64,000 nucleotides of DNA from Nitrososphaeria archaeon (GTDB lineage: Archaea; Thermoproteota; Nitrososphaeria; JACIWG01): contig JBEKIG010000002.1 of assembly GCA_050011875.1 (NCBI GenBank), forward strand, positions 66,822 through 130,821. Direction: 5' to 3'. The translations under genes and the position numbers were made by a program. This document shows, piece after piece, positions 6,219 through 33,827 of this stretch (the stretch's first letter is position 1; every line of letters begins with the position of its first letter). The notes under the pieces are model-generated. The model saw nothing but the letters and a program-made list of their open reading frames with translations. It was not told the origin of the DNA and did no database searches.

Positions 6219-7538
6219 AGGTGCAAAGTAAACCGTCGCTTTGAATTAATATACACTCAGTTATAAAGTGTTATCTTAGTATGTTGAAAGAATGGTCAAA
6301 TATCTTTGCTTGCGTTTTGAATTAGTGTTATCCACTTGTTATCTCCTTTTACTTCAATTCCACATCGATCTGCGGGTGTCTTCCCTTCTAATGCTTCATG
6401 TGGTCTTATGTAGTTATGATATATCTGATAGCCTTTAAGAATAGGTGTATCTGTTTTCTTTAATCCTCTCATAACCTTCTCTCTATCTCTTATCTCTCCG
6501 TTCATCCTCTCCATCTTATTGTTGTGAACTTCCCCACTTAACCGAATTTCTCTTATGTGCTTTGTTCTTGGGTTATGTTTAGTGTAGAACTCTTTCGTGC
6601 ATGCGTCTTGGTATGCTCGCAGTCCATCTGTTATTATGGTAAGAGGTTTTTTTCCAGATATTTCTTTTCCCATTTTGAAAAGGTTTCTTGCGTCATGAGT
6701 ATATTTTGTGTCCGCTACCTCTTGAGCAATCCAATATCTCGTTTCATCATCCATAAGAGCGAAGAGGTATTTCATATTCCCTTTAACCTTAACCCATAAT
6801 TCGTCAGCTCTCCACGTATCGCTAACATTTGGTTTCAGTTTCTCTACATAGTTTTCCATGAGTGAGATGTATTTCTTTATCCAATTATAGACGGTCTGAT
6901 GTGAGACCTCGACACCTAAGAGTCTTAAAGATTCCATCGTGTTTCTCAAAGATTCTCCGTTAAAGTATAGTTGCATAGCTGAGGTTATTGCTTGAGGGTT
7001 ATGTTTCATCTTCTCAAAACCTATGTTAATAGTAAAATATTTACCACATTCTTTACAGTAGAACTTTTGAATATCGCCAAACTTATTGTGTCTTATACCC
7101 CACTTCATCAAGTTCTGAGAGCCACAGAATATGCAACTTGAAATATTTGTGATAGGCTCAATTTTCCTAACCTCAACTTCCTTTCTTATTGAAAGGGAAA
7201 ATTCAACCGCAAAAATATGCTTACATTTCACACCTCTAAAAGTATAGTCTGGGCAAGAACATTTCCAGCCTAACTCTGTGCTGAAAACATCATAAACACC
7301 ATTACCACTTTGAGAATTAACTTTGTAAGAGTGTTCATCTATTCTCTTTACCTCTGTCCTCTTTTCACATATCATTTTCCCAAGTTGTTCACGAAGGTTC
7401 GTTTCCATTTATGCATCGCTATATACCTATACACAGGTATATTATATAAACTTATGCCTATTAGAGTGAACATTTATATACCTAAGACAAGCATAGGATT
7501 ACCATGAGCCTATTAAGCACAGCGACTTTTGCAAGTCC
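6219..7538. mobile_element. IS6-family insertion sequence (approximate ends)
   Basis: The transposase gene is flanked by imperfect inverted termini GGTGCAAAGT (left) and, reverse-complemented, GGACTTGCAAAAGT (right). Both resemble the IS6/IS26 terminal consensus GGCACTGTTGCAAA. No target-site duplication was found. Confidence 0.4.
6296..7408 (-). CDS. IS6-family DDE transposase with an N-terminal SWIM-type zinc-finger domain
   Basis: The IS6 pattern is present (DELWVKVKG..YLFALMD, then TDGLRAYQ, then NNKMERMNGEIRDR, then YHNYIRPH). N-terminal CSCPDY..CKH Cys/His clusters form the zinc finger. Confidence 0.8.
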   Translation of the reverse strand: METNLREQLGKMICEKRTEVKRIDEHSYKVNSQSGNGVYDVFSTELGWKCSCPDYTFRGVKCKHIFAVEFSLSIRKEVEVRKIEPITNISSCIFCGSQNLMKWGIRHNKFGDIQKFYCKECGKYFTINIGFEKMKHNPQAITSAMQLYFNGESLRNTMESLRLLGVEVSHQTVYNWIKKYISLMENYVEKLKPNVSDTWRADELWVKVKGNMKYLFALMDDETRYWIAQEVADTKYTHDARNLFKMGKEISGKKPLTIITDGLRAYQDACTKEFYTKHNPRTKHIREIRLSGEVHNNKMERMNGEIRDREKVMRGLKKTDTPILKGYQIYHNYIRPHEALEGKTPADRCGIEVKGDNKWITLIQNASKDI

Positions 7539-10488: not shown

Positions 10489-11832
10489 TCATGATGCTAG
10501 AACGACGAAAGATAATGAGTACGTATTTGTGCCATCGCTTAGTTCCAAGCCTAAAGTATATGTAACGTTAGGAACAAATGCCCCGTTTGCACATGTGAAC
10601 CAAAGTGTCTTAGTTTCTCCAGGGTTGATAATGGTGCTTTGTGCAGGTGGATTTGATCCCCCTGGTGAAGGTGCAATCGAAGTTATCTTTTCCTGGGTTA
10701 TCTTTGAGAAACCATTGTTCTTTATGTTCAGGATCAAGTTGTTTCCAGTAGTGTATCCACCGTCGATTTCTGCTCTGAACTGACTGCCACTTCCAGTCAC
10801 TTTACACGAAAGGTCATATGCCTGTTGAGTTTGAGCCCAACCTACAGATAATTTAATATTGTAAGTTTCGTAAGGGTCAAATGTAATTGATTTACCGTAT
10901 ATATCCTTAAGATCGTAGGAGAATTTGACTGCCGCACCTGGATTGATACCACCAAGTAGTTGTATCTGTCCACTTGGTAAATTTGTACCCTTTGGTCTCG
11001 GTTCAATATCCACTAACTCAATCCAATTTATTGGTAGAGAACCCGTGTTTCTTACATCAGTGTAAAGTCTGTCACCGATAACATACGCATTCTCCACTCG
11101 ACATTTAAGTAGAATCGAAATAATGCCCTCATGTTCCTTCCTTATTTCACTATAGTCTTTAGAAAGTTTCAAGTAATTCTCCTTTATTGAATCAATATTG
11201 GTTGTCAGTTTGTTGTATTTTTCCCGAGATGCTTTTACCTCAGAGTTTATTCCTGTAAAATATGTTGTAAGCTGACTACTCTTCAAGACACGGTCTTCAA
11301 GAAAATAAGCTATAAAGAAAATTATTCCTACGAGAATTACGACAAAAACTCCATAGCCTATCATGACAATAGCAAATACGCCTTTTTCGATAAGAGGTTG
11401 TAGCGAACCACTTTGACTTCCGGCTTCAGAGACAAGTTCCGATCTTACCGAATCAACGCCGAGTATCCACAGAAGACCTGTCATAATGCTGAAGACGCCT
11501 GCGAATAATGATATTTTTCTGTAAGCTATAGATAGAGTACCCAATATTATTGAAGCAAAGTAAAGAAGAGTTGCGGCTATCATCGTTCTCATCATCAATA
11601 AAATCTGAATCAAAGTATTGAGGAAGATGCCCATGTTAGTCGTTGGAAATGAGTAAGAGGTGTTAATGATTATTTTGAATATATCAGCCAGCATCAGGTT
11701 ATATTGATCATTAGTTGTAGTACTGGGCAAGCTCGTACTCGTGCTAAACAAGCTAATGCTGAGCCAAGGCATGGGGGAAGCAAGGATCAGAACTAATAAC
11801 CCTAATCCAGCTACAATACTAAAAGTTTTCAT
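10489..11832 (-). CDS. Polytopic membrane protein with a coiled coil and a beta-rich extracellular domain
   Basis: A signal/TM segment is followed by about four TM helices, a coiled-coil segment and a Ser/Thr/Gly-rich C-terminal domain. Confidence 0.45.
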   Translation of the reverse strand: MKTFSIVAGLGLLVLILASPMPWLSISLFSTSTSLPSTTTNDQYNLMLADIFKIIINTSYSFPTTNMGIFLNTLIQILLMMRTMIAATLLYFASIILGTLSIAYRKISLFAGVFSIMTGLLWILGVDSVRSELVSEAGSQSGSLQPLIEKGVFAIVMIGYGVFVVILVGIIFFIAYFLEDRVLKSSQLTTYFTGINSEVKASREKYNKLTTNIDSIKENYLKLSKDYSEIRKEHEGIISILLKCRVENAYVIGDRLYTDVRNTGSLPINWIELVDIEPRPKGTNLPSGQIQLLGGINPGAAVKFSYDLKDIYGKSITFDPYETYNIKLSVGWAQTQQAYDLSCKVTGSGSQFRAEIDGGYTTGNNLILNIKNNGFSKITQEKITSIAPSPGGSNPPAQSTIINPGETKTLWFTCANGAFVPNVTYTLGLELSDGTNTYSLSFVVLAS

Positions 11833-12031
11833 TGTTACTATTTTTTAAGATTCCATTATTTAACGATTACGGAGCAAATATTTTTTATAAAGATTGACAG
11901 ATAAATACTTCGAAGATTTAATTTTATGGTAAACAGAGTTTACCATACATTAAAGACTCAAATTTGAAAAGTGTTGGGTAAATAAAGTGTGCTATATTCT
12001 TTTTATTATTGTTTATAGTAACATAGGCCTA

Positions 12032-12724
12032 TTATTTTATTTTTAAGACATTAAGTCCTTCAATGATTCTTTGTACCGTTTCCTCAGGAGGACTGTTCAT
12101 CCAAACATCAACAAAGGGGATCTTACCTTCCTTCTTATCCATATAGTATTCAATAATAGGTTTACTCTGTTTTTCATAGACCTTTAATCGTTCTTTGATC
12201 ACCTTTGGATTATCATCGTTTCTCTGAATAAGAGGTGAACCGCATTTGTCACATATCATATCTTTGTGAGGCAGCAGGGGTGGTAAAACATAATTTACGC
12301 CGTTAATAGTTTTTTTAATGTCTGCGATATTATAATTGCCATCACATTTTGGATTAGAGCATATTCTTCTCGCCGAAATCTTCTCGACGAGGATTTCGCT
12401 TGGGGCGTTAATCCTTATTATAGCATCAATCTTTGCAATTTTGTCTAGCGCTACAGCTTGTCTTAAAGTTCTAGGAAAACCATCTAAAATAAAATTGTCC
12501 AAGTTACGAAGTTTCTTTTGAATTACTTCTATCACTATTTCGTCTGGAACAAGCTTTCCCTCCCTTAGGAGATCCTCAATTTTCTTACCCAATGCTGAAC
12601 CCTTCCTTATTTCTTCCCTAAAGATGTCGCCAGTGGAAATCTTTTCTAAACTAAATTTCTCCTTAAGTCTAATGGAGTACGTGCCTTTACCTGAACCAGG
12701 TGGTCCTAAAATTATCAACTTCAT
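12032..12724 (-). CDS. adk: Adenylate kinase (long form with Zn-binding LID)
   Basis: The P-loop GPPGSGKGT is present, and the LID carries the CSNPKCDG..CDKCG zinc motif. Confidence 0.85.
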   Translation of the reverse strand: MKLIILGPPGSGKGTYSIRLKEKFSLEKISTGDIFREEIRKGSALGKKIEDLLREGKLVPDEIVIEVIQKKLRNLDNFILDGFPRTLRQAVALDKIAKIDAIIRINAPSEILVEKISARRICSNPKCDGNYNIADIKKTINGVNYVLPPLLPHKDMICDKCGSPLIQRNDDNPKVIKERLKVYEKQSKPIIEYYMDKKEGKIPFVDVWMNSPPEETVQRIIEGLNVLKIK

Positions 12725-12812
12725 ATTATTCGCTCACATACTCTTACATTAAATATTTTAAACTTTTTCTACAGCAAAAATGGCTTTAAAAATATTTAAC
12801 TAAGGATATGGC

Positions 12813-14321
12813 TTGCTATTAACAATGCATCAAGAACAAACGGTAGATGAGCAGATAAATATTTTCTTTGATCCAAAGTCAGTGGCTGTAGTAGGCGCTT
12901 CACGGAAAGTAAACAAAGCAGGTTATGTGATATTTAAGAACTTTGCTGAGAATAAGAGAACCGGTTTATTCAAAGGAGAGCTCTATCCGATTAACCCTAA
13001 CGAAGATACTATTCTAGGGTACAAATGTTACCCGACGTTAACAAAAGTTCCCATTGATGAAATAGAACTTGTCGTAGTAATTGTTCCAGCAGCTGTCGTC
13101 CCTGAGGTTATGGAGGATGCTTCGCAAAAGAAATCAAAAGCGGCTATAATAATAACAAGCGGTTTTGGTGAAACAGGAAATCACGAACTCGAGAACCGCA
13201 TCAGAGAGATCTGCCTAAAATCTGGGATACGAGTCTTGGGACCTAACTGCCTTGGCGTTTACGATCCTTTAACAGGTATAGATACTCTCTTCTTGCCGGA
13301 GACAAAGGTTCTTATTTCTGGAGAAGAAGTAATTGCGACACCTCGTCCGATCCCCGGTGAGATCGCTGTAATAACGCAAAGCGGCGCATTTGGTGCAGCC
13401 ACCCTAGATTATCTTGCGGGTAGACAGTTGGGGATTAGCAAGTTTGTTAGCTTTGGCAACAGACTAGATTTAGATGAATCAGATTTGCTACAGTACTTTT
13501 TTAAAGATGAAGCAACAAAAGGCATACTGGTCTATCTTGAGGGAATTAAAGATGGAAAAAAGTTCATGGAAATCTCACAAAAGGTAACCGAGATTAAACC
13601 TGTAGTCGTGCTTAAGACTGGGAGGACCAATGCAGGAGCTAAAGCAGCAATGTCGCACACAGGATCAATGGCCGGAGCAGACGACATATATAATACTGTT
13701 TTTTTGCAAACGGGTATAATTAGAGCAAGCGATATGAATGAATTTTTTGATAATTGCAAGGCCTTGGTGTTCCAGCCCCCTGCATCTGGCAACAATATAG
13801 CTATAATTACAGATGCTGGCGGACCTGGCATAATGGCTGCGGATGAATGCGAGTTTAAGGGACTAAAAATTGGAGAACTTTCCGGAGAAAGTGTAAAGGC
13901 GTTGGAGGAAATGCGCCAAAGAAAAGAAATTCCTGAATACGCAAGCATTTCAAATCCAGTCGACCTAACCGGCTCTGTTACAACAGACATGTTCGTTAAT
14001 GTGACAAAAATAATATTAGAGGACTCTACTCTTAATGGAATCATAATACTCGGACTACATCACGTCCCTGGTCTGCAAGAAGATTTTATCGATAGAATCG
14101 CCAATCTAACAAAATATTACACCAAACCTGTAGTATTTTGCGATATTGGCGAAACCGAAATGGCACTTTATGTTCGCTCAAAATTTGAAAAATTTGGCAT
14201 ACCAGCTTACGCATCCCCTGAGGATGCGGCTCGAGCTATGGCTTCACTTTATAATTACGGCCTATACCTTTTAAAACAGAACAAACTTAATGATTTTCTG
14301 AATAAATTCATGAAAAAATGA
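12813..14321 (+). CDS. Acetyl-CoA synthetase (ADP-forming) alpha subunit / CoA-binding succinyl-CoA-synthetase-like protein
   Basis: The N-terminal CoA-binding motif VAVVGASRK is present, followed by the succinyl-CoA-ligase-like flavodoxin domain. No beta (ATP-grasp) subunit lies adjacent. Confidence 0.6.
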   Translation: MLLTMHQEQTVDEQINIFFDPKSVAVVGASRKVNKAGYVIFKNFAENKRTGLFKGELYPINPNEDTILGYKCYPTLTKVPIDEIELVVVIVPAAVVPEVMEDASQKKSKAAIIITSGFGETGNHELENRIREICLKSGIRVLGPNCLGVYDPLTGIDTLFLPETKVLISGEEVIATPRPIPGEIAVITQSGAFGAATLDYLAGRQLGISKFVSFGNRLDLDESDLLQYFFKDEATKGILVYLEGIKDGKKFMEISQKVTEIKPVVVLKTGRTNAGAKAAMSHTGSMAGADDIYNTVFLQTGIIRASDMNEFFDNCKALVFQPPASGNNIAIITDAGGPGIMAADECEFKGLKIGELSGESVKALEEMRQRKEIPEYASISNPVDLTGSVTTDMFVNVTKIILEDSTLNGIIILGLHHVPGLQEDFIDRIANLTKYYTKPVVFCDIGETEMALYVRSKFEKFGIPAYASPEDAARAMASLYNYGLYLLKQNKLNDFLNKFMKK

Positions 14322-14678
14322 AGAGTTTTAGATCCCAATAACTAGCATTGACCGAACCAAATGATAACACATATAGCTATTTTTGCTACAATTGAATCAT
14401 AATTACAAAATAGCCAAATATATTAAAGGTAACTGATTTTTTTTCTTATTAGTTAGAAGTTCGGTGTAAATGTGGTGCAATTAATTGTTGTTATTAATTA
14501 CTTTAAAACATTTATTGTACAAGTTTTTGTAATACGTGTATAAGAGTTATTTCAAACTAAGATTATGCTTTTGGATTTTGCAGTAGTTTTTAATGCGAAT
14601 AACGCATATTTGAGGGTAAAAAATGGTCAATTTTTTATTCAGAAACGTTTAAAAAACTTGATGATGCAATAAGAAACT

Positions 14679-15422
14679 ATGACAGAGAAGAAAGAAAAGA
14701 AAAAAGACGTAGGTCAAATGACTAATGTTGAAATAATGCAGGAACTTAGAAATTTTGATACTGCCACCATATGTAACGTTGTTGCTACATATCCGGGAAG
14801 TGACATTTGCCTAAAACTATATGACGCATGGTATGGAGAATATTACACTGATCTGAATCTCCATTGCATGTACCCAGACCTTGGTCCATTGTGTGGTTAT
14901 GCTGCGACAGCCTGGTATTCCCAAGAATCAGCTGATTATACTAAACTAGATGAGTGGTTGTTGTATGATCATCTGGACTTGAGTAATAAACCGATAATTC
15001 TAGTTACCAAGCAAACATATCCTCCTGAACTAGTTGATTCGTCAGGCCTTTTCGGGGGAAATATGACTTCCCAGTTTAAAGCAATGAAAGTAATCGGTAT
15101 TGTCACAGACGGCCCCATGAGAGATTATGAAGAAATAAAAGAGATGAAAGTACAGTATCTTGCTAAAGGACTTACTTCTGGACATGGCCCGCTAATGCTG
15201 AGAGGAGCCAACATACCGATTAGGGTCGCTGGAATGTCTGTTTCACCAGGCGATATAATTCATATGGATATCTGTGGAGCAGCAAAGTTCCCTGAAAAAT
15301 ATCTTCAAAAAGTATTAGAGTATGCTATTGAACTCAGAAATAGAGAGGTCAAGCACCAAAGCATGTTCCAAGACCCTAACTTTAGTTATAAAAAATGGAA
15401 GGAGAGCTCCAAGAAATACTGA
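14679..15422 (+). CDS. RraA-like family protein (4-hydroxy-4-methyl-2-oxoglutarate aldolase / MenG-like)
   Basis: The motifs TATICNV, GPMRDYEEI and SPGDIIHMDICGAAKFP match RraA family signatures. Confidence 0.55.
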   Translation: MTEKKEKKKDVGQMTNVEIMQELRNFDTATICNVVATYPGSDICLKLYDAWYGEYYTDLNLHCMYPDLGPLCGYAATAWYSQESADYTKLDEWLLYDHLDLSNKPIILVTKQTYPPELVDSSGLFGGNMTSQFKAMKVIGIVTDGPMRDYEEIKEMKVQYLAKGLTSGHGPLMLRGANIPIRVAGMSVSPGDIIHMDICGAAKFPEKYLQKVLEYAIELRNREVKHQSMFQDPNFSYKKWKESSKKY

Positions 15423-15465: not shown

Positions 15466-16449
15466 TTACCGTTCAATTGAACAGTACATCTTTTCTCCTT
15501 TCTTTTTTACTTTAATAAGTGTCTTAACTTGTATACCGAACTTATCTAGAACCTGTTGTTTCCCCTTATAAATTTCCTTCTCCATTATACATGCGACATC
15601 AATTATTTTGACACCCTGTTTTTGGAAAGTATCGATCAAAGAAATTAATGTACCTCCGGTTGATATCGTGTCATCGATTATTAGTATTCGGTCGCCTGCT
15701 TTAACACTATATATGTAGTATCTTCCTTTCTCATAACCGGAAGAATATTTTACTTTATCTAAGAGGTAGTCGGTTGTGCCAAAAGGTCTCTTCCTTATGA
15801 TCGCCATAGGTTTTCCTTTACTTTGAGCTACGAGCGTAGCTATTGGTAAACCTAATACTTCAGGCACCACCACCTTATCAATTTCGTCTGAAGTTCTATC
15901 ATTTATTTCGCTTGCTATCCAGGACAGTGTTCTAGGACTTGGGGGAGGCACGTGTTTTGTAATCCTATTTAATATGAACTCGTATACCTTCCTCGAACCG
16001 TCTTTCACCCAACGCCTTCTAATTATTTTTGCATTTTCATAATACGAGGTTATTTCAGAGACTATTTCTTCATCATATTTCTTTTTCAGCGTTTGCGATT
16101 GTCTTATTTCTCTGAAGAAACATGTAACATTTCCTGTGTGACAGGTCGGTCCATATGGGTCGACCATATAAAGTATGGTATCATTGTCGCAGTCTACTCT
16201 GATCTGTACAACTTTAAGAAGATTTCCGGATGTTTCACCTTTCATCCATAACTTTTTCCTTGATCTACTCCAGAAATAGCCGAATCCCGTCTCTAAAGTT
16301 CTGTTTACAGCCTCTTTGTTGGCATAGGCGATCATAAGGACCTTGTTTGTTATAAAATCTTGCACGACAACAGGAACGAGACCGTTTTCCCCAAATTCTA
16401 TGTCCTCTTTTTCAACTGCTCCGTATGTTTTCATGTAATCCTTACACAC
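15466..16449 (-). CDS. hisI: Phosphoribosyl-AMP cyclohydrolase (HisI) fused to a type I phosphoribosyltransferase domain
   Basis: The N-terminal roughly 115 aa form the HisI fold (..WSRSRKKLWMKGETSGN..CDNDT..). The C-terminus carries the PRPP-binding motif ILIIDDTISTGGTL. It is the last gene of the his operon and overlaps hisF by 19 nt. Confidence 0.7.
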   Translation of the reverse strand: MCKDYMKTYGAVEKEDIEFGENGLVPVVVQDFITNKVLMIAYANKEAVNRTLETGFGYFWSRSRKKLWMKGETSGNLLKVVQIRVDCDNDTILYMVDPYGPTCHTGNVTCFFREIRQSQTLKKKYDEEIVSEITSYYENAKIIRRRWVKDGSRKVYEFILNRITKHVPPPSPRTLSWIASEINDRTSDEIDKVVVPEVLGLPIATLVAQSKGKPMAIIRKRPFGTTDYLLDKVKYSSGYEKGRYYIYSVKAGDRILIIDDTISTGGTLISLIDTFQKQGVKIIDVACIMEKEIYKGKQQVLDKFGIQVKTLIKVKKKGEKMYCSIER

Positions 16450-17147
16450 ACTCCTCTGTCGGCAAGATATTTTTTCACAGCTTGCACGGGATACTCGTTA
16501 AAATGGAATATTGACGCGGCCAGCACAGCGTCAGCCTTCCCTATAGTAACCGCTTCATATAGATGCTGTGGGTTTCCTCCACCTCCACTCGCTATGACCG
16601 GGATGTTAACGTTTGAAGATACAAGTGAAGTTAATTCAAGGTCGTATCCGATCTTTGAGCCATCCCTATCTATCGATGTTAGAAGGATCTCCCCTGCCCC
16701 AAGCTTTTCCACATTCACAGCCCAATCCCTCACATCAATTCCCCTCGCTTTGCGGGCACCGTGAGTATAAACCTCAAAGCCCGAATGCACGCTTTTCGAG
16801 CGTTTCCCATCTATAGCTACAACCACACACTGGCTGCCATATTTGTTAGCGAGCTCGGTTATTATGGTGGGTTTTTCGACAGCCATAGTATTTATTGACA
16901 CTTTATCGGCTCCATTCCTCAAAATTGAATATGCATCATCCATGCTTCTTATCCCACCTCCGACAGTAAACGGAATATCTAGAACTTCTGCAACGCTCTT
17001 GACAACGCTTAGTAAAGTTTTTCTTGTTTCGATTGTTGCTGTTATATCTAAAAAGACTATCTCATCAGCGTTGTCATTTCTGTACTTAAGTGCCATTTCA
17101 ACAGGGTCGCCCGCTACTTTCAAGTCGACAAAGCTTTTTCCTTTCAT
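16431..17147 (-). CDS. hisF: Imidazole glycerol phosphate synthase cyclase subunit
   Basis: The (beta/alpha)8 HisF pattern is present (DEIVFLDITAT.., GGGIRS) and the gene sits in operon context. Confidence 0.85.
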   Translation of the reverse strand: MKGKSFVDLKVAGDPVEMALKYRNDNADEIVFLDITATIETRKTLLSVVKSVAEVLDIPFTVGGGIRSMDDAYSILRNGADKVSINTMAVEKPTIITELANKYGSQCVVVAIDGKRSKSVHSGFEVYTHGARKARGIDVRDWAVNVEKLGAGEILLTSIDRDGSKIGYDLELTSLVSSNVNIPVIASGGGGNPQHLYEAVTIGKADAVLAASIFHFNEYPVQAVKKYLADRGVCVRIT

Positions 17148-17187
17148 TACCTTACCGTTGTCGACATCTAGGCACGGAATTATCCTT

Positions 17188-17907
17188 TTAGCTACACTCG
17201 TTTCTGGTCACCTTTAAAGCGTCAGAGATGTCAATTAATCTATCGTATATTACTCGGCCGAGGATTACCCCCCTGATTTTATAATTTTTCAAGACTCTGA
17301 TATCGTTTAATGAAGAGATTCCGCCTGCAACATAAATTTGTTCAGAGAAATCATGTAACAGGTCCAAGTATGAAGTATCAAGGCCTGTTAGTGTACCATC
17401 CCTTTGAACGTTTGTTGAAAGAAATAACCTGAAACCTTGATTCCAAAGACCTTGGATTGTGGGTTGAAGCTCAAGGGCTAATTTTTTTTTCCAGCCATTT
17501 ATGACAATCTTTCCCTGTGAATGATCTATGGCAACAATTATTTTTTCTGCACCAAATTTTAACAACTCTGCGTGATCAATTTGACCTGTAAATATCCCAG
17601 TTCCGATAATAGCTCTGCAAGATCCTATTTCAAATATCTTTTCTACGTCCCGTATGCTATGTAGTCCGCCTCCCACCTGAATTTTTATATTAGATTTCTG
17701 AATAATTTTCCTAATTACTTCAGAGTTACTTCCTATTCCTAAAGCTGCATCAAGGTCTATAATGTGTAGGCCGTCGACCTTCATTTTCTCCCAATTTTCA
17801 GCGGTTTTAACTGGGTTATCGCTGTAAACTATCATTTTCTCTTGTTCACCTTTTACTAACCTTACAACCTTTCCTTTCATTAGGTCAACTGATGGCCATA
17901 CTTCCAA
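17188..17907 (-). CDS. hisA: ProFAR isomerase
   Basis: A HisA-like TIM barrel (SVDLMKGKVVRL, VGGGL) in his operon context. Confidence 0.8.
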   Translation of the reverse strand: MEVWPSVDLMKGKVVRLVKGEQEKMIVYSDNPVKTAENWEKMKVDGLHIIDLDAALGIGSNSEVIRKIIQKSNIKIQVGGGLHSIRDVEKIFEIGSCRAIIGTGIFTGQIDHAELLKFGAEKIIVAIDHSQGKIVINGWKKKLALELQPTIQGLWNQGFRLFLSTNVQRDGTLTGLDTSYLDLLHDFSEQIYVAGGISSLNDIRVLKNYKIRGVILGRVIYDRLIDISDALKVTRNECS

Positions 17908-17911
17908 TTTC

Positions 17912-18514
17912 TCATCTCTTTACGTACTTAATAAAATTCTCCAATATTTTTTTTCCTACATCTCCCGACTTTTCAGGATGAAATTGTGTTCCAAACAAGT
18001 TTTTCTTTTCGACAACTGAAGTGAATTTTGAGCCATAGAATGTCATACCTGTCTTAATAGAATCGTCTTTTGGTTCAGGATAATACGAGTGAGCAAAGTA
18101 AACCCACCTCGGTTCATATATATGATTGAGTAAAATGCTGTCCTTATTTAATTTAACTGAGTTCCATCCCATATGCGGTATTTTTACACCATTGCTAAAT
18201 CTAATTACTTCACCTTCGAATATGCCTAACCCATCACCCGGTCCCTCTTCACTTCGTTCAAACATGAGCTGAAGCCCAAGACATATTCCAAGCAGGGGGA
18301 CACCTTCTTCGATCGCTTCTATGATCTTGTTTTTGACTTTCTCCATGGTTTCGCAGGCTGATGAAAAACTTCCGACACCTGGAAGAATGATCGCGGAATA
18401 TTTCCTTAAGTCATAATTTTTTGGAATGACATCAACATCGACGTTGAGTCTTCTAAGTGAAGATAGAAGACTAAACATGTTGCTTGCTCCATAATCTATT
18501 ACAGCAAATTTCAT
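17912..18514 (-). CDS. hisH: Imidazole glycerol phosphate synthase glutamine amidotransferase subunit
   Basis: A class I GATase with GICLGLQ, and HSY near the C-terminus. Confidence 0.85.
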   Translation of the reverse strand: MKFAVIDYGASNMFSLLSSLRRLNVDVDVIPKNYDLRKYSAIILPGVGSFSSACETMEKVKNKIIEAIEEGVPLLGICLGLQLMFERSEEGPGDGLGIFEGEVIRFSNGVKIPHMGWNSVKLNKDSILLNHIYEPRWVYFAHSYYPEPKDDSIKTGMTFYGSKFTSVVEKKNLFGTQFHPEKSGDVGKKILENFIKYVKR

Positions 18515-19090
18515 CTACATCTTGCCTTTGGAGCTAGGAATACCTTTCCGTTTCCGATCTACTTCCCATGCTTCGCTTAAAGATAGGGCAAGACCTTTGA
18601 ATACCGCCTCGACCTTGTGATGATTGTTTGTGCCTCTCAGAACATTTACGTGCAATGTAAATTTTAGCGAATTCGCTAGAGTCTCAATAAAATGCGGTAT
18701 GTCTTCTGAAGCCATATCTTCTATTTGTCCGCTCCATAAATCAAGTTCTATATCTGAGAATTGGCGCGTGACTAAATCGATGCTCACGAGTGCCAAAGCA
18801 TCGTCCATTGGAACTATTGAATACCCAAACCTCTTAATACCATTCCTGTCGCCAAGCGCTTGTCTTAACGCTTCCCCTAACGTTATCGCGACATCCTCAA
18901 CTATGTGATGACTTAGATCACCTTTTGCTTTAATTTCGAGGTCAATATAGCTGTGAACAGCAAGCTCACAAAGAAGGTGGTCTAAAAATCTTATACTGGT
19001 GTCTATGTTGGTTTTACCATCCCCATCTATGTTCAACTTTATCTTGATTTCAGTTTCTTTGGTTTTTCTCTCAACAGTTGAAGTTCTCAT
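18515..19090 (-). CDS. hisB: Imidazoleglycerol-phosphate dehydratase (monofunctional)
   Basis: HisB-type His/Glu-rich motifs are present (RFLDHLL, SHHIVEDV) in his operon context. Confidence 0.85.
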   Translation of the reverse strand: MRTSTVERKTKETEIKIKLNIDGDGKTNIDTSIRFLDHLLCELAVHSYIDLEIKAKGDLSHHIVEDVAITLGEALRQALGDRNGIKRFGYSIVPMDDALALVSIDLVTRQFSDIELDLWSGQIEDMASEDIPHFIETLANSLKFTLHVNVLRGTNNHHKVEAVFKGLALSLSEAWEVDRKRKGIPSSKGKM

Positions 19091-19091
19091 G

Positions 19092-20189
19092 TTATGTCAC
19101 CGTAAATCCCCTTGTATATAACGTTGCGAGGTCATCGACTGACTTCACAATCAAATCTGCGCCTTGCTCTATAAAGAATTTTTCGACAGCCAAAGGATCT
19201 TCCTTGAGTCCTGTTATACCTGCAAACATAATTTGAGTTAAACTTTTTTTTGCGTTATTAGCCATTAGAACATCCTCAGATGAGTCACCGACATATAATG
19301 TAACAGAATTTCCAGCTAAATTTAGAAGCGGTAAAGGAGAAGGTTTTTTCATCGGAATTGCCTTTTTGTTGTCTCGTCTGACAACATCCTCTATAAAGAT
19401 TGAAGAATCAAGGTCAAAATATTCTATGAGAGATCCTAAAACATGTTCTACGCCAATTCTTGAACGCCCTGTAAGCATAAAAAAAGGTAAACCGATATCT
19501 GTTCCAAGCTTTTTAAATGATTTTTCGTTTACCGCCGCTCTCTCATTTCCAATTAGTCCTTCCCTAGTCAATATAGGTCTTGAGCCATAGATCTTCTTAT
19601 AAATTTTGTTACCATAGTATATCGAATCGAAAAGTTTAACGAGTGAACTCTTTGAAGGATTTAATGGTACACCGAGTTCTTCTATTAATTGCTGGAATTC
19701 ATCCAAAGTTCCTTTTTTATTACATGTCGATATTGCGTATTTGTCTACATCAGAGATCGGATCAGTTTTAAGAGAGCTGAGGAAAGTCTTAAATTGTAAC
19801 TGCAATGACTTCTCGTTTATTTCTTCGCTCGCCTGATTAAACCCGCCACATTTCAACCAAAATAGGATTGCTTTTGCCGATTCCCTTGACAGCTGTGAAA
19901 AAATGAAGACTGTCAAGGCGTATACAGCATCCCACTCGTTGTTATAGAGCCCGCTTTCCCTCAATTTTTCAATCTGCGTTCGATCTATAGGTGATTTTTT
20001 CCTCAGGGGCCTAAAAATGTAGTTGAGAACTTCAATTATCGTGGAGTCATACGAATTTCTTGAATCAACGAGAACGCCATCGCAATCAAATACTAGGTGA
20101 TTAGCTGAATTTAGTTTACCCAAGCTCCTGTTAAGCAACAATGCTCTCCCCTTGCTCAGTCTGATTTCTAAATAGTTATTGACTGACAA
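19092..20189 (-). CDS. HAD-superfamily phosphatase with a large cap domain, embedded in the his operon (candidate histidinol-phosphatase)
   Basis: Motif I is VFDCDGVLVDS and the C-terminal motifs are K..GDSSED. It overlaps hisC by 14 nt and ends 1 nt from hisB. Confidence 0.6.
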   Translation of the reverse strand: MSVNNYLEIRLSKGRALLLNRSLGKLNSANHLVFDCDGVLVDSRNSYDSTIIEVLNYIFRPLRKKSPIDRTQIEKLRESGLYNNEWDAVYALTVFIFSQLSRESAKAILFWLKCGGFNQASEEINEKSLQLQFKTFLSSLKTDPISDVDKYAISTCNKKGTLDEFQQLIEELGVPLNPSKSSLVKLFDSIYYGNKIYKKIYGSRPILTREGLIGNERAAVNEKSFKKLGTDIGLPFFMLTGRSRIGVEHVLGSLIEYFDLDSSIFIEDVVRRDNKKAIPMKKPSPLPLLNLAGNSVTLYVGDSSEDVLMANNAKKSLTQIMFAGITGLKEDPLAVEKFFIEQGADLIVKSVDDLATLYTRGFTVT

Positions 20190-21243
20190 TCTTCTTCACT
20201 AGTTTGAAAAAAGTTTGGTTCATTTCACCTGTTCCGACTGTAACTCTAAAATAGTGTTCGCCGAATATCTTCCCAATGTTCCTAATCATTACGCCCTTAT
20301 CGTACAATTGATTATAGAATTTGTCAGGGTCAATAGGAGAGCGGAAAAGTATAAAGTTCGCCTCTGATTTGTAGGCTTCAACCCCCACCGATTTAAGGTC
20401 GTTATAGAGTTTTTCCCTTTCAACCTTAAGTCTATCGACCGCATCTTCTATGATCTTTCTGTTTTGAAGAAGCTTGATGGCGATTCTAGCAGAGAAGTTT
20501 ACGATGGGGTATGTTAACTGAGCAACAGTTGAGATCGGCTTCGATATTTTGGGGTTAGCTATCATGTAACCTATTCTCAATCCAGCTAAGCCATACGACT
20601 TCGAGAAAGTTCTCAATACAATAAGATTTTTATATTCATTAATCAAAGAATAAACGGAGTATTTTGCGAAATCAACGTATGCTTCATCGACGACTACGAG
20701 ACCGTCAAGTCTGTTAACCACTTCTCTTACAATCTCTATGGGAAACTGATTGCCTGTTGGATTATTTGGTGAACAAAGTATGACTAATGTGGCCCCCTGT
20801 CCTTCTTGAACAAATTTATCGAGGTCCAAAGAGAAATCTGGTTTAAGTGGCACAGCTACATATTCACCTCCATTAAAAATTGTCCTATAGCGATAAACTG
20901 GAAAGGTGGGGAAGATTGAGACAATTTTTTGTTCCGGGGCAAAAATGTTAAGCAGTATGTCGATGAGCTGATCTTCTCCAGAACCCACAGTAATACTGTC
21001 TTCACCCAAATTTAGAAACCTTGAGAGAACCTTAATTAATTCAACGTTTTCTATATTTGGGTAGAGCCTTAAATCAACTTCATTAAGCACTTCTTCAGCT
21101 AATCTTCTTAGAAGATCTCTGTCCATAAGAAAATTCTCGTTAGCATTAAGCCTTAGAATTACATTTTCCACGTCTTCCATGGGATAGAATTCGTACTTGT
21201 TCAAGTTTTCGAGCCTATCAGCTACTACCCTGTTAAGCATCAT
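20176..21243 (-). CDS. hisC: Histidinol-phosphate aminotransferase
   Basis: A class I/II aminotransferase pattern (NANENF.., TFSKSYGLAGLRIGY) in operon position between hisD and the HAD gene. Confidence 0.8.
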   Translation of the reverse strand: MMLNRVVADRLENLNKYEFYPMEDVENVILRLNANENFLMDRDLLRRLAEEVLNEVDLRLYPNIENVELIKVLSRFLNLGEDSITVGSGEDQLIDILLNIFAPEQKIVSIFPTFPVYRYRTIFNGGEYVAVPLKPDFSLDLDKFVQEGQGATLVILCSPNNPTGNQFPIEIVREVVNRLDGLVVVDEAYVDFAKYSVYSLINEYKNLIVLRTFSKSYGLAGLRIGYMIANPKISKPISTVAQLTYPIVNFSARIAIKLLQNRKIIEDAVDRLKVEREKLYNDLKSVGVEAYKSEANFILFRSPIDPDKFYNQLYDKGVMIRNIGKIFGEHYFRVTVGTGEMNQTFFKLVKKIVSQ

Positions 21244-22556
21244 TTTCTTCCCACTAAATATTCTATTGACTTCAAATGGTTAGTTAGTCCTTCTGAGGAA
21301 GCTAACGTCTTGATCGTTGGTAACGATTTAACGATCCCAGACTTCGACGCTATGACCACTCTAACCAACTTAATATAGTCTAACACGTTTAATCCGCCTC
21401 GATTTAACGCGTAACAGTCAGTTGGAAGAACATGATTTACTCCTACGAAATAGTCCGTCACAACACTCGACGAATTAACTATGATCACTCCGGCATTTCC
21501 AATTTTGTCTACGATTCGATTAAAATCTTTTGAAATTACTTCAAAGTGTTCAGGGGCAAAACCGTTAACGAAATCAACTACGGTATCTACGCCATCAGCA
21601 ACGATAACAAATCCCTTGCCTTCGAGAGCTGCTGTGACTATTTCTTTACGGTCCACGGTCCCAATTATCTTTGATACCTCACTCACTACTTTTTCAGCCA
21701 GCTCTTGGGAACAGGTTATGAGCCCGCAAACAGAGTCTGTTCCATGTTCCGCTTGAGATATTAAATCTAGAGCGATAGACTTAGCATCGGCTCCACTATC
21801 TGCATAGATTATTATTTCTGTAGGCCCAGCTGGCATGTCTACTTGAACGTCTCTTGTAACTATTGTTTTAGCTTTTGTAACATAAGCATTACCGGGACCA
21901 ACTATCTTATCAACTGGCGCTATTGTCTCTGTGCCGTATGCAAGGGCTGCGATAGCCTGCGCACCTCCGATCCGGTAAACTTCTGAAGCACCCGCGATAT
22001 CGGAGGCAACAAGCATCAATGGAGTGAGTTTATTTGGCGGTGTTGCAACAACTGTTCTTTCTACACCGGCTACTTTGGCCGGAACCACGGTCATCAATAG
22101 TGTACTTGGATACGATGCCTTCCCACCGGGGATATAGCATCCCACACTACGGATAGGTCTTGTTGTCTGACGAATAATGAAACCATTAGCTTTAAGTGTT
22201 ATGTTCAGTCTATCCTTTGTTTTTTTTTCTAATTTCTGAATGTTCTTTTTTAAGGTATATAGCGCTCGAACCTCTTTTTCATTTACCTTTCTATAAGCCT
22301 GTTGTATTTCTTCCTGAGTAATTCGAAGCAAATTTTGCCTTAAAGATATGCCATCAAATTGCCTTGTGTATTCTATCAGAGCATTATCACCCCTTTTTCT
22401 AACATCGTCCACTATTTCCACAACCTTTTTGTCAAGTTCAATATCCAAATCAGATTTCTTTCTTACTTCATTTAGTACATGATCTATATCGTTCTTAGCT
22501 AGTTTGAAGAATTTCATGTCATTTTCCACCGTTTTCTTCTTTGGCGATATCCTCAA
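21240..22556 (-). CDS. hisD: Histidinol dehydrogenase
   Basis: A 438 aa protein with the HisD pattern (..QAEHG..), overlapping hisC by 4 nt. Confidence 0.85.
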   Translation of the reverse strand: MRISPKKKTVENDMKFFKLAKNDIDHVLNEVRKKSDLDIELDKKVVEIVDDVRKRGDNALIEYTRQFDGISLRQNLLRITQEEIQQAYRKVNEKEVRALYTLKKNIQKLEKKTKDRLNITLKANGFIIRQTTRPIRSVGCYIPGGKASYPSTLLMTVVPAKVAGVERTVVATPPNKLTPLMLVASDIAGASEVYRIGGAQAIAALAYGTETIAPVDKIVGPGNAYVTKAKTIVTRDVQVDMPAGPTEIIIYADSGADAKSIALDLISQAEHGTDSVCGLITCSQELAEKVVSEVSKIIGTVDRKEIVTAALEGKGFVIVADGVDTVVDFVNGFAPEHFEVISKDFNRIVDKIGNAGVIIVNSSSVVTDYFVGVNHVLPTDCYALNRGGLNVLDYIKLVRVVIASKSGIVKSLPTIKTLASSEGLTNHLKSIEYLVGRK

Positions 22557-23502
22557 GCGGCATTATCAGTTGGGGCTCGTGTACTACAAGACCTTGAGCC
22601 ACTTTTCGAAGTTTAGGTAGCAATCTTATGTAATCAGACCTGTTAATGATGGTGTTGACAGCATACCAACCGGGCTTAGAAAGGGGGCTTATCGTTGGAC
22701 CTTTAAGCCCAGGAAGCAGACTGATAAGCTCCTGTAGTTTACCCTCTTCAACATTGACAAATATGTGCAGCTTCTTGCTGCTTTCAATTACACCCCTAAA
22801 GAGCGCAACCACATCGTAGATCTTTTCTCTTTTATTTGGATCATTTAAAGAAGCTTTGTTAGCGATTAGAACCGCTTTAGACCTAACTATTACATCTATG
22901 GGTTTTAATCCGTTTTGTTCTAAAGTCGTACCAGTTTCTGACACATCAGCTATTGCATCAGCTTCTTCTGGAGGTTTAGCTTCTGTGGCACCGAAAGAAA
23001 GGTAGACTTGAACGTGCTTGTTATCACCGGTCTTCCACCATGGTGTTACAATAATTGGTTTCTCTCTGCCGTAGAGTTTTTTATATTCTCTGAGATCAGA
23101 TATATACCGAGACACGGATGATGGGTACTCCGTCGATATTCTAATGATCTTATCGGAAGCATGATATGATTCAAGAAGTTTCTCGAATGAATCTACGTTA
23201 ATTGTTTTTGGAACCGCTATCATAAGATTTACAGCACCATACTCCAAATTTAAAAGAACTTTTACACGCGCTTTAGTTTCTTGAACCCAGTCAAGGCCTG
23301 TTATTCCGATGTCATAAAGACCGTCGGAAACGTAGATAGGTATTTCCTGAGGTCTTAGAATCTTAAACTTTATCTCAGAGTCATCGGATGTGGGGCGATA
23401 GCTTCGTTCTTTTCCGTATATTCTAATAAACGCTTTCTCAAGAAAGTCGTAGGTTGACTTTTCAAGTGATCCTTTTGGTATAGCAAAAAGTATTCTAGAC
23501 AA
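22519..23502 (-). CDS. hisG: ATP phosphoribosyltransferase (long form)
   Basis: The N-terminal HisG pattern (AIPKGSL, TGLDW) is present. The 327 aa length implies a C-terminal regulatory domain. It is the first gene of the operon. Confidence 0.8.
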   Translation of the reverse strand: MSRILFAIPKGSLEKSTYDFLEKAFIRIYGKERSYRPTSDDSEIKFKILRPQEIPIYVSDGLYDIGITGLDWVQETKARVKVLLNLEYGAVNLMIAVPKTINVDSFEKLLESYHASDKIIRISTEYPSSVSRYISDLREYKKLYGREKPIIVTPWWKTGDNKHVQVYLSFGATEAKPPEEADAIADVSETGTTLEQNGLKPIDVIVRSKAVLIANKASLNDPNKREKIYDVVALFRGVIESSKKLHIFVNVEEGKLQELISLLPGLKGPTISPLSKPGWYAVNTIINRSDYIRLLPKLRKVAQGLVVHEPQLIMPLEDIAKEENGGK

Positions 23503-30987: not shown

Positions 30988-32472
30988 ATGCTGAGTGTTC
31001 AGAGGACATTGATAATAAAAAATTCTTTGGAACTTCTACAACATGGCAACGTTTCAGGGCGAAAAACTGTTTTAGAAATTATCGAATCAGGACTTCAGGC
31101 CTCCGACCCATACTTTAACACGAAGAAATTGATCAAACTGAGAAATAAAAAATTGATTATTGGTCGACCAGGGTTGTCTTTTTTTACATCGGATGGCAGA
31201 AATATTAGGTCACTGCTTGTTTTTGACTTATCCAAAATAAATAACATTTATGTCGTTGGCGGAGGAAAAGCCGCTCAACGACAGGCTAAAGCGATAGAAG
31301 ATGTCCTTGGAAATCTGATCACTGAAGGACACATTAATGCTAAAAAGGGAGAGGAGGTTCAACTCAAGAAAATTGAGGTTACTCTTGCAGGACATCCCTT
31401 ACCAGACGAAGACGGTGTCAGAGGCTCAAAAAGGATCATGGAGATAGAGTTAAAGGCAAAGAAAGGTGACATCGTCTTCTTTTCAGAATCTGGAGGAGGC
31501 TCAGCATTGATGGCTTTACCCGGACCTGGACTTAAACTGGAAGACATCCAAGCTGTCACAAAAAAACTTTACTTTGAGAAGGGTGCGTCGATGTGGGATA
31601 CAAATACGGTCAGATGGAATCTGATGATTCTTAGAGGAAAGGATGAAAGGTATGTTGGAGATGCTACAATGATCTGTTTTCACACAGACGAGAGACCTTT
31701 AGGTGTTGAAGTTAACGTAAACAGACGTGTGGGAGGAGTTGGAACATATAGGGATGCTAAGAATACATTAAAAAAATATGGCATCTGGAATGATGTCCCT
31801 GAATCGGTCCGAAAATATTTAGATAGAGCAGATCCCCGTTATTCACCAATAAAAAAAAGGGAATTAGATGGTAAACCTCATTACCATTTTAGGGTCATGG
31901 GGCCTGAATATATGTTGGAAGCAGCCAAGAAAAGAGCTGAAGAGATAGGTGTTAACGCGTCGATAATTTCCTCAAGCTTAAGCGATATTGAAGCTAATGC
32001 GGTCGGGAACATGCTGGCCTATATCGCCAAAGAAATAGAAATCTTTGGCAGGCCATTTAAAGCTCCTTGTGTTCTAATCTCTGGCGGGGAACTTCTTGTT
32101 AAGGTTGGGGAAAAGAAAGGACTGGGTGGAAGAAATCAGGAATTCGTCCTCTCTACAGCTTCCAGGTTGGCTGGAAGTAGCAATATTGTTATTGCCTCAT
32201 GCGATTCTGATGGAACAGACGGACCTACAGACGCAGCTGGCGGCATTGTAGACGGTTTTACAGTAGAAAGGGCTGAAAAAGAAGAAATTAATATAATGGA
32301 AGATCTCGATAATCATAACAGCTTTAATGCTTTATCCAAATTGGGAGATCTTATCTTCACTGGCGCAAGGGGAACAAATGTTCAAGACCTTCGCATCGTA
32401 TATGTTGGAGGTATGAAACAAAATCAACGTGAACAGGTTCCGGGTTACATAACATCATTATTTATAAAATGA
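30988..32472 (+). CDS. Glycerate 2-kinase, MOFRL family (paralogue 1)
   Basis: The GGGKAAQRQAKA and DSDGTDGPTDAAGG motifs match the DUF4147+MOFRL family. It is about 65% identical by eye to the 33828..35306 paralogue. Confidence 0.55.
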   Translation: MLSVQRTLIIKNSLELLQHGNVSGRKTVLEIIESGLQASDPYFNTKKLIKLRNKKLIIGRPGLSFFTSDGRNIRSLLVFDLSKINNIYVVGGGKAAQRQAKAIEDVLGNLITEGHINAKKGEEVQLKKIEVTLAGHPLPDEDGVRGSKRIMEIELKAKKGDIVFFSESGGGSALMALPGPGLKLEDIQAVTKKLYFEKGASMWDTNTVRWNLMILRGKDERYVGDATMICFHTDERPLGVEVNVNRRVGGVGTYRDAKNTLKKYGIWNDVPESVRKYLDRADPRYSPIKKRELDGKPHYHFRVMGPEYMLEAAKKRAEEIGVNASIISSSLSDIEANAVGNMLAYIAKEIEIFGRPFKAPCVLISGGELLVKVGEKKGLGGRNQEFVLSTASRLAGSSNIVIASCDSDGTDGPTDAAGGIVDGFTVERAEKEEINIMEDLDNHNSFNALSKLGDLIFTGARGTNVQDLRIVYVGGMKQNQREQVPGYITSLFIK

Positions 32473-32683
32473 TATACTTAGTTGTCTTTTTAGATATATT
32501 GAGTTTAACAAACACAATCTTTACCGTAAACCAATCTATATTTATTAAAATAAGTTTAAGTGTAGGCTAAATAGTGTTTACAGATAAAACCTAGTTATTA
32601 AAAATTGAACACCAAAATTATTACCTGCTGGCTAAGCACTTTTTTAGGTTAAATACATTAAGTAGAAATTATAACCCTAAAAT

Positions 32684-33799
32684 ATGAAGGTTAGAGAAGT
32701 TTTTAACAGGTTTGCGCCTTATGAATGGGAAATTTCACCTCGTGAAATTGCGGGTATAGCAAACATCCCGGTTGAAAGGGTTTTACGGCTTGATACAAAC
32801 ACTTCTCCTTTCCCCCCAAAAAAATGGCTCAAAAAATTAGCTAAAAATTTGGTTAACGTACCTGTGAATCAATATCCTGATACAAAATATTCAGAAATAA
32901 CTCAAGCAATTACGAAATACGTCAAAGTGGATTTGGATAATATCGTGATGACTAAAGGTGCGGACGAAGCGATAGATATAATAGTTAAGACATTTCTAGA
33001 GTGCGAAGACAAAATAATTCTTTCAGCCCCCTCATATCCTATGTTTAGGGTCGCATCGGAGATAGCAGGCGCAAAAGTTCTTGAAGTGGACAGAAAAAGT
33101 GAACCACCCTTCAGGGACGATGTAAATGAGATAATTCATGTCGGAAAAAAAGAGAAAGTTTCTGCTGTTTTCCTTAGTAATCCCAACAATCCTACGGGAA
33201 CTCTGATGGAAGTAGATGATATAAGAAGATTAGCAGAAGAAATAAAGTGCGCTATCATAATTGACGAAGCATACTTCGAATATTGTGGTAAGTCTGCCGT
33301 GAAATTAATAAAAGAGTATGAAAACGTTGTGATTATTAGGACCCTCTCTAAAGCCTTTTCTCTCGCTGGTGAAAGAATAGGTTACATTCTGGCAGATCAG
33401 AAGACAGTTGACAAATTTAACTACGTAAGGCCCCCAAATTCACTAAGTGTTACCTCGATAGAATTGGCGCTGATAGCTTTATCCGATATCAAACAGATGC
33501 AAAAGTGGGTTAACGAAGTGATAAGTGAAAGGGAAAGATGCTTTAATATTTTAAAGTCAATTAGTAATGTTAACCCATACCCTAGTACTGCCAACTTTAT
33601 ACTCTTTAAACTCTCCGACGTTAGTGCGGACTTTGTACACAAAGAGTTGTTGAAGAAGGGAATAAGCGTTCGAAACTTAAGCGGTACGAGAAACCTTAAA
33701 AATTGTCTGAGAGTGACAATCGGCTCAAGAAATGATAACGATAGATTCCTTGAGGAGTTGACGACAATCATTAAAACCAATCGTAAGAATAATATATGA
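32684..33799 (+). CDS. Class I/II PLP aminotransferase (HisC-like subfamily)
   Basis: A fold-type I aminotransferase pattern (..NPNNPTG.., RTLSKAFSLAGERIGY). It lies between the two glycerate kinase genes. Confidence 0.6.
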   Translation: MKVREVFNRFAPYEWEISPREIAGIANIPVERVLRLDTNTSPFPPKKWLKKLAKNLVNVPVNQYPDTKYSEITQAITKYVKVDLDNIVMTKGADEAIDIIVKTFLECEDKIILSAPSYPMFRVASEIAGAKVLEVDRKSEPPFRDDVNEIIHVGKKEKVSAVFLSNPNNPTGTLMEVDDIRRLAEEIKCAIIIDEAYFEYCGKSAVKLIKEYENVVIIRTLSKAFSLAGERIGYILADQKTVDKFNYVRPPNSLSVTSIELALIALSDIKQMQKWVNEVISERERCFNILKSISNVNPYPSTANFILFKLSDVSADFVHKELLKKGISVRNLSGTRNLKNCLRVTIGSRNDNDRFLEELTTIIKTNRKNNI

Positions 33800-33827
33800 G
33801 AGTTGTTGGACACCAACGACATATTTA

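Follow-up and report, generated by a model that had tools for sequence, protein, structure and literature searches.

The stretch of DNA analyzed here, 64 kb of the genome of a Nitrososphaeria archaeon and 'the window' in what follows, carries on its minus strand an operon for the biosynthesis of histidine that opens with hisG and runs down to hisF (Table 1). The gene that closes this operon is our subject. It encodes in a single polypeptide, from the N-terminus onward, a complete HisI—the phosphoribosyl-AMP (PR-AMP) cyclohydrolase—then a linker helix, and then a complete type I phosphoribosyltransferase (PRTase). Both domains are well known, but the HisI–PRTase architecture that they form is an undescribed one, and it is conserved in several uncultured lineages of Thermoproteota. 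The order of the operon is repeated in homologous loci, L001, L002 and L093 among them, the last of which is syntenic with the window.

One uninterrupted open reading frame (ORF) spans both domains, from a stop codon at 15466–15468 back to either of two candidate starts: a GTG at 16449, for a protein of 327 amino acids (aa), or an ATG at 16434, for one of 322. Because the ATG overlaps the stop codon of hisF, as ATGA (16431–16434), and lines up with the N-termini of the homologs, the protein is most likely the 322-aa form, and the mechanically listed GTG is probably not used. Residue numbers throughout refer to the 322-aa form. The overlap suggests, in addition, that translation of the fusion gene is coupled to that of hisF.

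The N-terminal half scores 115.6 bits against PF01502 (cutoff 27) and 147.7 bits against NF000768, the HisI equivalog (cutoff 126). The DCDxD…CH…C signature of PR-AMP cyclohydrolases (PRA-CH) is present, and the metal-binding and catalytic residues—D81, C82, D83, D85, C98, H99 and C105—do not vary among 38 family members, nor among the 31 members whose PRTase domain is intact. In an AlphaFold2 (AF2) model built on a 31-sequence alignment of the family, this half superimposes on the HisI structure 1zps with a root-mean-square deviation of 0.5 Å over 92 residues (51% identity), and it matches HisIE, too, when the Protein Data Bank (PDB) is searched with Foldseek. We predict that it is an ordinary, active HisI that would catalyze step 3 of histidine biosynthesis. 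The layout of the protein is that of HisIE (NF002747; 6j2l, 7bgn): an N-terminal HisI fold with its metal-binding residues, a second domain C-terminal to it, and a gene that comes last in the his operon. The partner differs, however. In HisIE it is an all-alpha, HisE/MazG-like bundle; here it is an alpha/beta type I PRTase, and no HisE profile matches it.

On the whole protein, Pfam places PRA-CH at residues 39–112 (E 9e-34) and Pribosyltran at residues 178–309 (E 3e-14), both above their gathering scores; the latter match, to PF00156, is of 52.9 bits (cutoff 26.3). The original prediction, made from the letters of the sequence, had proposed just such a fusion, and the domain hidden Markov models (HMMs) bear it out. 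The AF2 model of the fusion has a mean predicted local distance difference test score (pLDDT) of 94 and a predicted template modeling score (pTM) of 0.89, which implies that the two domains are packed against each other in a defined way. Residues 134–322 form an alpha/beta type I PRTase core with its hood, preceded by a single linker helix. The closest solved structures of this half, by Foldseek against the PDB, are the xanthine PRTase (XPRT) of Bacillus subtilis (1y0b, 2fxv) and the adenine PRTase (APRT) of Escherichia coli (2dy0), with target TM-scores of 0.77–0.79 at probability 1.00. That the extra domain is not the catalytic unit of HisG also proves correct: hisG is a separate, long-form gene, and Pfam finds no HisG catalytic domain (PF01634) in the fusion protein. 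Neither do the Pfam and NCBIfam scans find a DNA- or RNA-binding domain in it; what the PRTase domain is joined to is HisI.

Between the two domains, no trace of HisE can be seen. The fusion protein has no Pfam match to PRA-PH or MazG, an HMM for the HisE domain scores the fused proteins at E 0.7–1.3 or worse, and an all-alpha four-helix bundle of the HisE/MazG kind is not present in the AF2 model of the fusion. The observation that the middle segment lacks a HisE-like stretch thus holds, but the segment is not an unexplained spacer. It comprises the 21-residue linker helix, which is poorly conserved (mean pairwise identity 26%), and the N-terminal part of the PRTase domain itself, which carries the YxYxxNPxTxxxPxxxP motif common to the stand-alone, archaeal Hpt-type relatives.

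Table 1. Features of the fusion gene and the his operon in the window, and related genes at homologous loci (P, proteins; L, loci)
Feature	Coordinates	Strand	Size or residues	Basis or remark
hisI–PRTase fusion gene	15466..16434	(-)	322 aa + stop	ORF list, sequence
HisI (PR-AMP cyclohydrolase) domain	16099..16434	(-)	residues 1-112	PF01502, NF000768
Linker helix	16036..16098	(-)	residues 113-133	AF2 model, pLDDT >90
Archaeal Hpt/Apt-type type I PRTase domain	15469..16035	(-)	residues 134-322	PF00156, NCBIfam, Foldseek
R214-K215-R216	15787..15795	(-)		Aligned to RK motif of APRT/XPRT; kept in 90-100% of intact fused members, shared with stand-alone relatives
Flexible-loop motif VKYSSGYEKGRYYIYS	15706..15753	(-)	residues 228-243	Aligned to APRT YxLEYG loop
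Phosphoribosyl pyrophosphate (PRPP)-binding loop ILIIDDTISTGGTL	15646..15687	(-)	residues 250-263	Motif conservation
Rest of his operon, overall	16431..23502	(-)		Pfam
hisF	16431-17147	(-)		Pfam
hisA	17188-17907	(-)		Pfam
hisH	17912-18514	(-)		Pfam
hisB	18515-19090	(-)		Pfam
HAD-family gene	19092-20189	(-)	365 aa	Pfam; between hisC and hisB
hisC	20176-21243	(-)		Pfam
hisD	21240-22556	(-)		Pfam
hisG	22519-23502	(-)		Pfam; long form, HisG + HisG_C domains, separate gene
P0040	L001 9629-10594 (true ORF)		321 aa	Annotated as L001 10001-10594, 197 aa
P0035	L002 7761-8726 (true ORF)		321 aa	Annotated as L002 8100-8726, 208 aa
P0140 gene	L088 1656-2540; L089 1038-1922			

The C-terminal domain is a diverged PRTase of the archaeal Hpt/Apt type that has kept the core catalytic motifs of its family. 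The named families that it matches best when scanned by itself, over the full length of the domain, are HPT_Archaea (NF040646; 132.5 bits, cutoff 200) and the 'adenine PRTase' PRK12560 (NF009211; 129 bits, cutoff 188), followed by PRK02304.1-4 (NF002635; 128.5 bits, cutoff 146) and, far below, TIGR01090 (52 bits, cutoff 185.85). With the first two it has in common YxYxxNPxT, ExxG, RKR, the GY loop, DDxxSTGGT and K286; it differs from them in its scores, in being fused to HisI, in certain residues discussed below, and in being no more than 33–40% identical to their stand-alone members. The intact members share five PRTase motifs: DKVVVPExLGxP, AIxRKR, YxSGYExGxYYxYG, (V/I)DDxxSTGGT and KxxYxG. 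The canonical PRPP-binding loop noticed in the original prediction is indeed there: D254, D255, S258, T259, G260, G261 and T262 vary little or not at all among intact members, and the stand-alone relatives have the same residues. Full or near invariance is also seen, in intact members, at Y230, S232, G233, E235, G237, Y239, Y242 and G243 of the flexible loop, a loop that degenerate members have deleted. R214-K215-R216 we take, from what is generally known of APRT and XPRT, to be the pyrophosphate-binding loop. Overall, the PRTase halves of intact members are nearly as alike as the HisI halves (mean pairwise identity 0.48 vs 0.58).

When the 31 fused PRTase domains are compared column by column with 85 stand-alone, archaeal Hpt-type relatives, 37 positions prove to reach 85% conservation or more among the fused domains, and at 23 of these the stand-alone group has the same residue, E192, G195, R214-K215-R216, G233-Y234, D254-D255, S258-T262 and K286 included. 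The catalytic machinery of the PRTase has therefore not been remodeled. To judge from the alignments, the domain looks like a PRTase of unchanged core chemistry and, possibly, altered base preference, rather than a fold recruited for new chemistry. XPRT and APRT (1y0b, 2fxv; 2dy0, 7y94) align with it in the PRPP loop, the RK motif and the Tyr/Glu flexible loop, at only ~20% sequence identity; where the APRT 'EARGF' motif has Arg, the domain has Leu (PExLGxP), and XPRT, too, lacks the Arg. In XPRT, the lysine of an 'EK' motif touches O6 of 6-oxopurines. K286 aligns with this lysine, which hints at a 6-oxopurine substrate of the hypoxanthine/guanine type. The hpt genes of methanogens belong to the same family as the NF040646-type relatives. 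In vivo, methanogen hpt encodes a hypoxanthine PRTase, as counterselection with 8-azahypoxanthine has established (PMC3462420, PMC11267900).

The fusion is found well beyond the window. A search of 5.8 billion protein clusters yielded ~50 clusters with the PF01502 + PF00156 architecture, at identities of 91% down to ~35%. Their source labels are metagenome-assembled genomes of Nitrososphaeria, Nitrososphaerota, Thermoproteota, Desulfurococcales and Korarchaeota—none of them cultured—and the assemblies behind them are independent (NCBI, JGI, ENA and Logan). In most of the 16 family loci that we inspected, the fused gene closes the his operon; in L007 and L091 it is divergent from hisG. A scan of GTDB genomes turned up at least one further fused locus (L008) among the 80 loci listed. 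Could the fusion be an artefact nonetheless, with hisI joined to a neighboring PRTase gene by a frameshift, by an error of sequencing or by chimeric assembly? We consider the chance negligible, because the architecture recurs in ~50 clusters, and its gene is nearly always the last of a his operon; the ORF is continuous, besides, and AF2 packs the two domains together with confidence. Nothing was found in favor of an artefact. Two entries listed as stand-alone PRTases, P0040 and P0035 (labeled 'phosphoribosyltransferase family protein', 197 and 208 aa), had at first suggested a split form, but their starts were mis-called at an internal Met, and the real ORFs are fusions that directly follow hisF (Table 1). 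Two further candidates for stand-alone orthologs, P0138 and P0143, were rejected as well; these are mis-called starts or truncated fused genes.

Nearly all of the close homologs found for this PRTase subfamily are fused to HisI. A word-indexed search with the PRTase half alone returned only fused proteins, apart from one distant protein from Vibrio, and an exhaustive phmmer search of 1.84 billion representatives returned 780 matches, of which the top ones are representatives of the fused family. The nearest true stand-alones (P0141, P0142 and P0145–P0147), at 33–40% identity, are Hpt-type PRTases of the ordinary archaeal sort and carry the same set of motifs.

The one step of the pathway for which a HisIE-like layout would lead one to look here is that of HisE, the phosphoribosyl-ATP (PR-ATP) pyrophosphohydrolase. 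The HisE-domain HMM, which we built from 65 HisIE proteins and which recognizes HisE in 61 of 87 control loci, comes up empty when run over all six reading frames of the window (best E 0.57), and Pfam scans of ~60 ORFs of the window reveal neither PRA-PH nor MazG nor Nudix domains. Ten other, non-redundant fused loci (183 kb) likewise yielded neither hisE nor a MazG-like gene, and a HisE hidden in the linker or elsewhere in the operon was rejected since all six frames of the window and of the 16 fused-family loci are negative with the HMM. The absence of hisE from the cluster, as originally reported, is thus confirmed. From it came the suggestion that the PRTase domain might be a non-orthologous replacement. 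Such a domain would bind PR-ATP by way of its 5-phosphoribosyl and pyrophosphate sites, split it into PR-AMP and pyrophosphate, and pass the PR-AMP to the fused HisI, in mimicry of the bacterial HisI–HisE fusion. The idea has its attractions. HisE is the only step of the pathway without a gene in the operon, and the PRTase is the only extra domain; the close homologs of this PRTase subfamily, as noted above, are nearly all fused to HisI. PRPP synthetase, moreover, is a PRTase fold that is able to cut the alpha–beta bond of ATP. The PRTase lies C-terminal to HisI, the position that HisE occupies in all HisIE fusions (PMC1963479), and there is a precedent for a non-canonical protein at this step in the MazG-family PR-ATP diphosphatase of Desulfovibrio, DVU1186 (Price et al. 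2018, PMC5764234), although this is an all-alpha nucleoside triphosphate pyrophosphatase related to HisE, whereas the domain here is of an unrelated fold.

What undermines the idea is that relatives without the fusion lack a nearby hisE just as completely. Bathyarchaeota (L020, L037, L015), Caldarchaeales (L018) and Nitrososphaerota (L047) have G-D-C-B-H-A-F-I operons in which a HisI of 113–116 aa comes last, and none has a hisE within 10 kb on either side. In archaea whose hisI and hisE are unfused, the two genes generally lie apart on the chromosome (Fani et al. 2007, PMC1963479). The local absence of hisE therefore means little; it is the norm for the clade, and we have dropped it as evidence for a replacement. 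The residues of the active site, furthermore, are those of ordinary Hpt-type PRTases, with no sign of a new hydrolytic chemistry. We think such a replacement unlikely, then, and the original argument for it—no hisE visible—unsupported. A fuller version of the same idea would make the PRTase fold the PR-ATP pyrophosphohydrolase of these archaea, a HisE analogue of unrelated fold, at the very position next to HisI where bacteria and eukaryotes have HisE, that might cleave the alpha–beta phosphoanhydride in the manner of PRPP synthetase, with the lineages in which the domain has decayed having acquired another HisE. This we consider quite unlikely. L091 and L092 contain other genes that might have provided a pyrophosphatase or a link to purines—a HIT hydrolase in the former, a DHH phosphoesterase and a cluster of the xanthine dehydrogenase type in the latter—but these occur once each and are not conserved across loci, and were set aside.

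The two halves of the protein have been lost separately in the course of evolution. On at least three separate occasions, all five PRTase motifs have disappeared at once: in P0033, in P0036/P0039 and in P0049/P0050/P0051. Partial decay is seen, besides, in P0138, P0143 and P0144. The HisI beside a decayed PRTase can be 90–94% identical to that of its closest intact relative, and the his genes are still alongside in the degenerate loci that were examined (L003–L007). That the motifs have decayed so often in lineages that keep both HisI and the operon counts against the PRTase domain as the performer of the HisE step. At equal divergence of HisI, the degenerate PRTase domains change faster than the intact ones; the constraint upon them has therefore been relaxed rather than shifted.

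The opposite loss has happened, too. P0140 is nested within the fused family—it is 47% identical to the fused P0139, from the last residues of HisI through the linker to the C-terminal tail—and has every PRTase motif intact, but what precedes these is a HisI remnant of 76 aa without catalytic motifs. Pfam detects no HisI domain in P0140, and the family HisI HMM gives it only 1.4 bits. Its gene is outside any his operon and adjoins a polar-amino-acid ABC transporter. An intact PRTase that has neither HisI nor a his operon for company must therefore have a function that is independent of HisI, and this counts against a HisE replacement as well. The HisI and PRTase halves are, on this comparative evidence, functionally separable.

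Might the PRTase domain be there to sense or to hold, rather than to catalyze? A domain of the PurR or PyrR kind could bind PRPP or a nucleotide, or dimerize, and so regulate or stabilize HisI or, perhaps, a HisG–HisI assembly, with turnover of bases not its main role. The PRTase domain of PurR, which binds PRPP or ppGpp, is among the top Foldseek matches of the C-terminal half, in structures with cPRPP or ppGpp (1p4a, 7rmw), and in the PurR of B. subtilis, likewise, an unrelated N-terminal domain is fused to a PRTase fold, which binds PRPP or ppGpp as a signal. The high pTM indicates a fixed interface between the domains, and at least three lineages without the catalytic motifs have kept the domain open, as frames of 281–297 aa that still match PRTase HMMs, in keeping with a residual structural role. 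The parallel with PurR goes only so far, however. PurR, which does not catalyze, has a DNA-binding domain of the winged-helix type, whereas the partner in the fusion is an enzyme and most members of the family conserve the catalytic loop; the purR_Bsub model gives the C-terminal half 40.6 bits (cutoff 258.7). Intact members keep the residues of the flexible loop, which binding alone does not need, along with both acidic residues of the PRPP loop. The degenerate domains have been released from constraint, and P0140 has no HisI to regulate. We do not favor a sensor, which the original prediction had raised as an option, and hold a sensing or scaffolding role to be rather unlikely.

The explanation that we prefer, at a probability of roughly 0.5, is that the protein is bifunctional: a HisI and an active, Hpt-like purine PRTase, co-translated with the his operon, with HisE encoded elsewhere. 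In most members of the family, the C-terminal domain is probably active and would convert a purine base and PRPP to a nucleotide and pyrophosphate. The fusion would hold the PRTase rigidly against HisI, and translational coupling to hisF would bring it under the control of the his operon. As to what is gained, we infer that the benefit lies in replenishment: synthesis of histidine drains PRPP, together with one purine ring of ATP per histidine, and a salvage PRTase made at the same time could refill the nucleotide pool. The PRTase domain might double as a structural partner of HisI, and this would explain why the domain has been retained in lineages whose catalytic motifs have decayed. HisE itself we expect to have its gene at another place in the genome, the usual situation in archaea.

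Several observations pull the other way. The PRTase domain falls under the cutoff of every curated NCBIfam family; it is related to them, but is a member of none. A number of residues—Y230, S232, E235, Y239, Y242, Y289 and a few others—are specific to the fused proteins, and since they are concentrated in the flexible loop and in the base-side motif, the substrate may not be a standard purine. That close homologs of this PRTase subfamily are nearly always fused to HisI suggests, as far as the searches go, a tighter coupling to the pathway than co-expression needs. A dedicated salvage enzyme, finally, may already exist. Some 7 kb from the fusion in L001 (17469–18800) is a second, unrelated PRTase of 196 aa, weakly like XPRT/HGPRT, that sits beside a PNP_UDP_1 nucleoside phosphorylase gene, and the two are likely a pair devoted to purine salvage in a genome that also bears the fusion.

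In L092, three genes directly downstream of the fusion (11024–14702) form a molybdoenzyme cluster of the xanthine dehydrogenase/CO dehydrogenase type (FAD_binding_5, Fer2_2 and Ald_Xan_dh_C/MoCoBD). This could be a further link to purine metabolism, at that one locus.

We found no description of a HisI–PRTase fusion, or of HisE-less Thermoproteota, in PMC and bioRxiv, where most matches to the term 'hisE' seemed to be to 'HiSeq'. Fani et al. (2007, PMC1963479) wrote that hisIE was the sole his fusion known in archaea; among the archaeal fusion proteins in a survey of 2024 are HisIE, HisHF and HisA/F-HisIE, with HisI–PRTase absent (PMC11237513). The automatic annotation of JGI does record both domains for some members. 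Pipelines name the fusions only 'phosphoribosyl-AMP cyclohydrolase', or split off false stand-alone PRTases, and this should be put right. The biosynthesis of histidine is a textbook model for the study of gene fusion, and here is a fusion that physically ties the pathway to the metabolism of PRPP and purine nucleotides. A salvage role for the PRTase, if it has one, would show how thermophiles short of purines might balance the drain that the histidine pathway makes on ATP and PRPP. Should it turn out to be an analogue of HisE, instead, a core pathway would offer a clear example of non-orthologous displacement.

Elsewhere in the operon, the HAD-family protein encoded between hisC and hisB carries a very long insertion that separates HAD motif I from the core that Pfam recognizes (residues 233–313). 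A HAD gene occupies the same position in the fused loci L001, L002, L003/L004, L007 and L093, and is missing from the operons of Bathyarchaeota L020 and L037 and from L008, L090, L091 and L092. The protein is a candidate for the archaeal histidinol-phosphate phosphatase, the other step to which no gene is assigned here.

The rest of the window has points of interest of its own. A DDE transposase of the IS240 type with a SWIM zinc finger (6296–7408, minus strand) marks a mobile element inside it. Two paralogous DUF4147 + MOFRL genes, glycerate-kinase-like (30988–32472 and 33828–35306), flank a class I/II aminotransferase gene (32684–33799) on the plus strand, in the region 30988–35306. Farther on, the region 39771–45572 holds a 726-aa restriction-modification methylase of the Eco57I/MmeI type (43392–45572, minus strand) and, adjoining it, an ORF of 913 aa without a Pfam match (39771–42512); a 329-aa ORF, also without a Pfam match, lies further downstream (45717–46706). 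Then come ~2.2 kb (46700–48900) in which neither strand has an ORF as long as 70 aa. This interval contains no CRISPR-like array and no Rfam match at gathering thresholds; what it does contain is a single, imperfect pair of 48-nt direct repeats, 75% identical, at 47006–47053 and 47201–47248.

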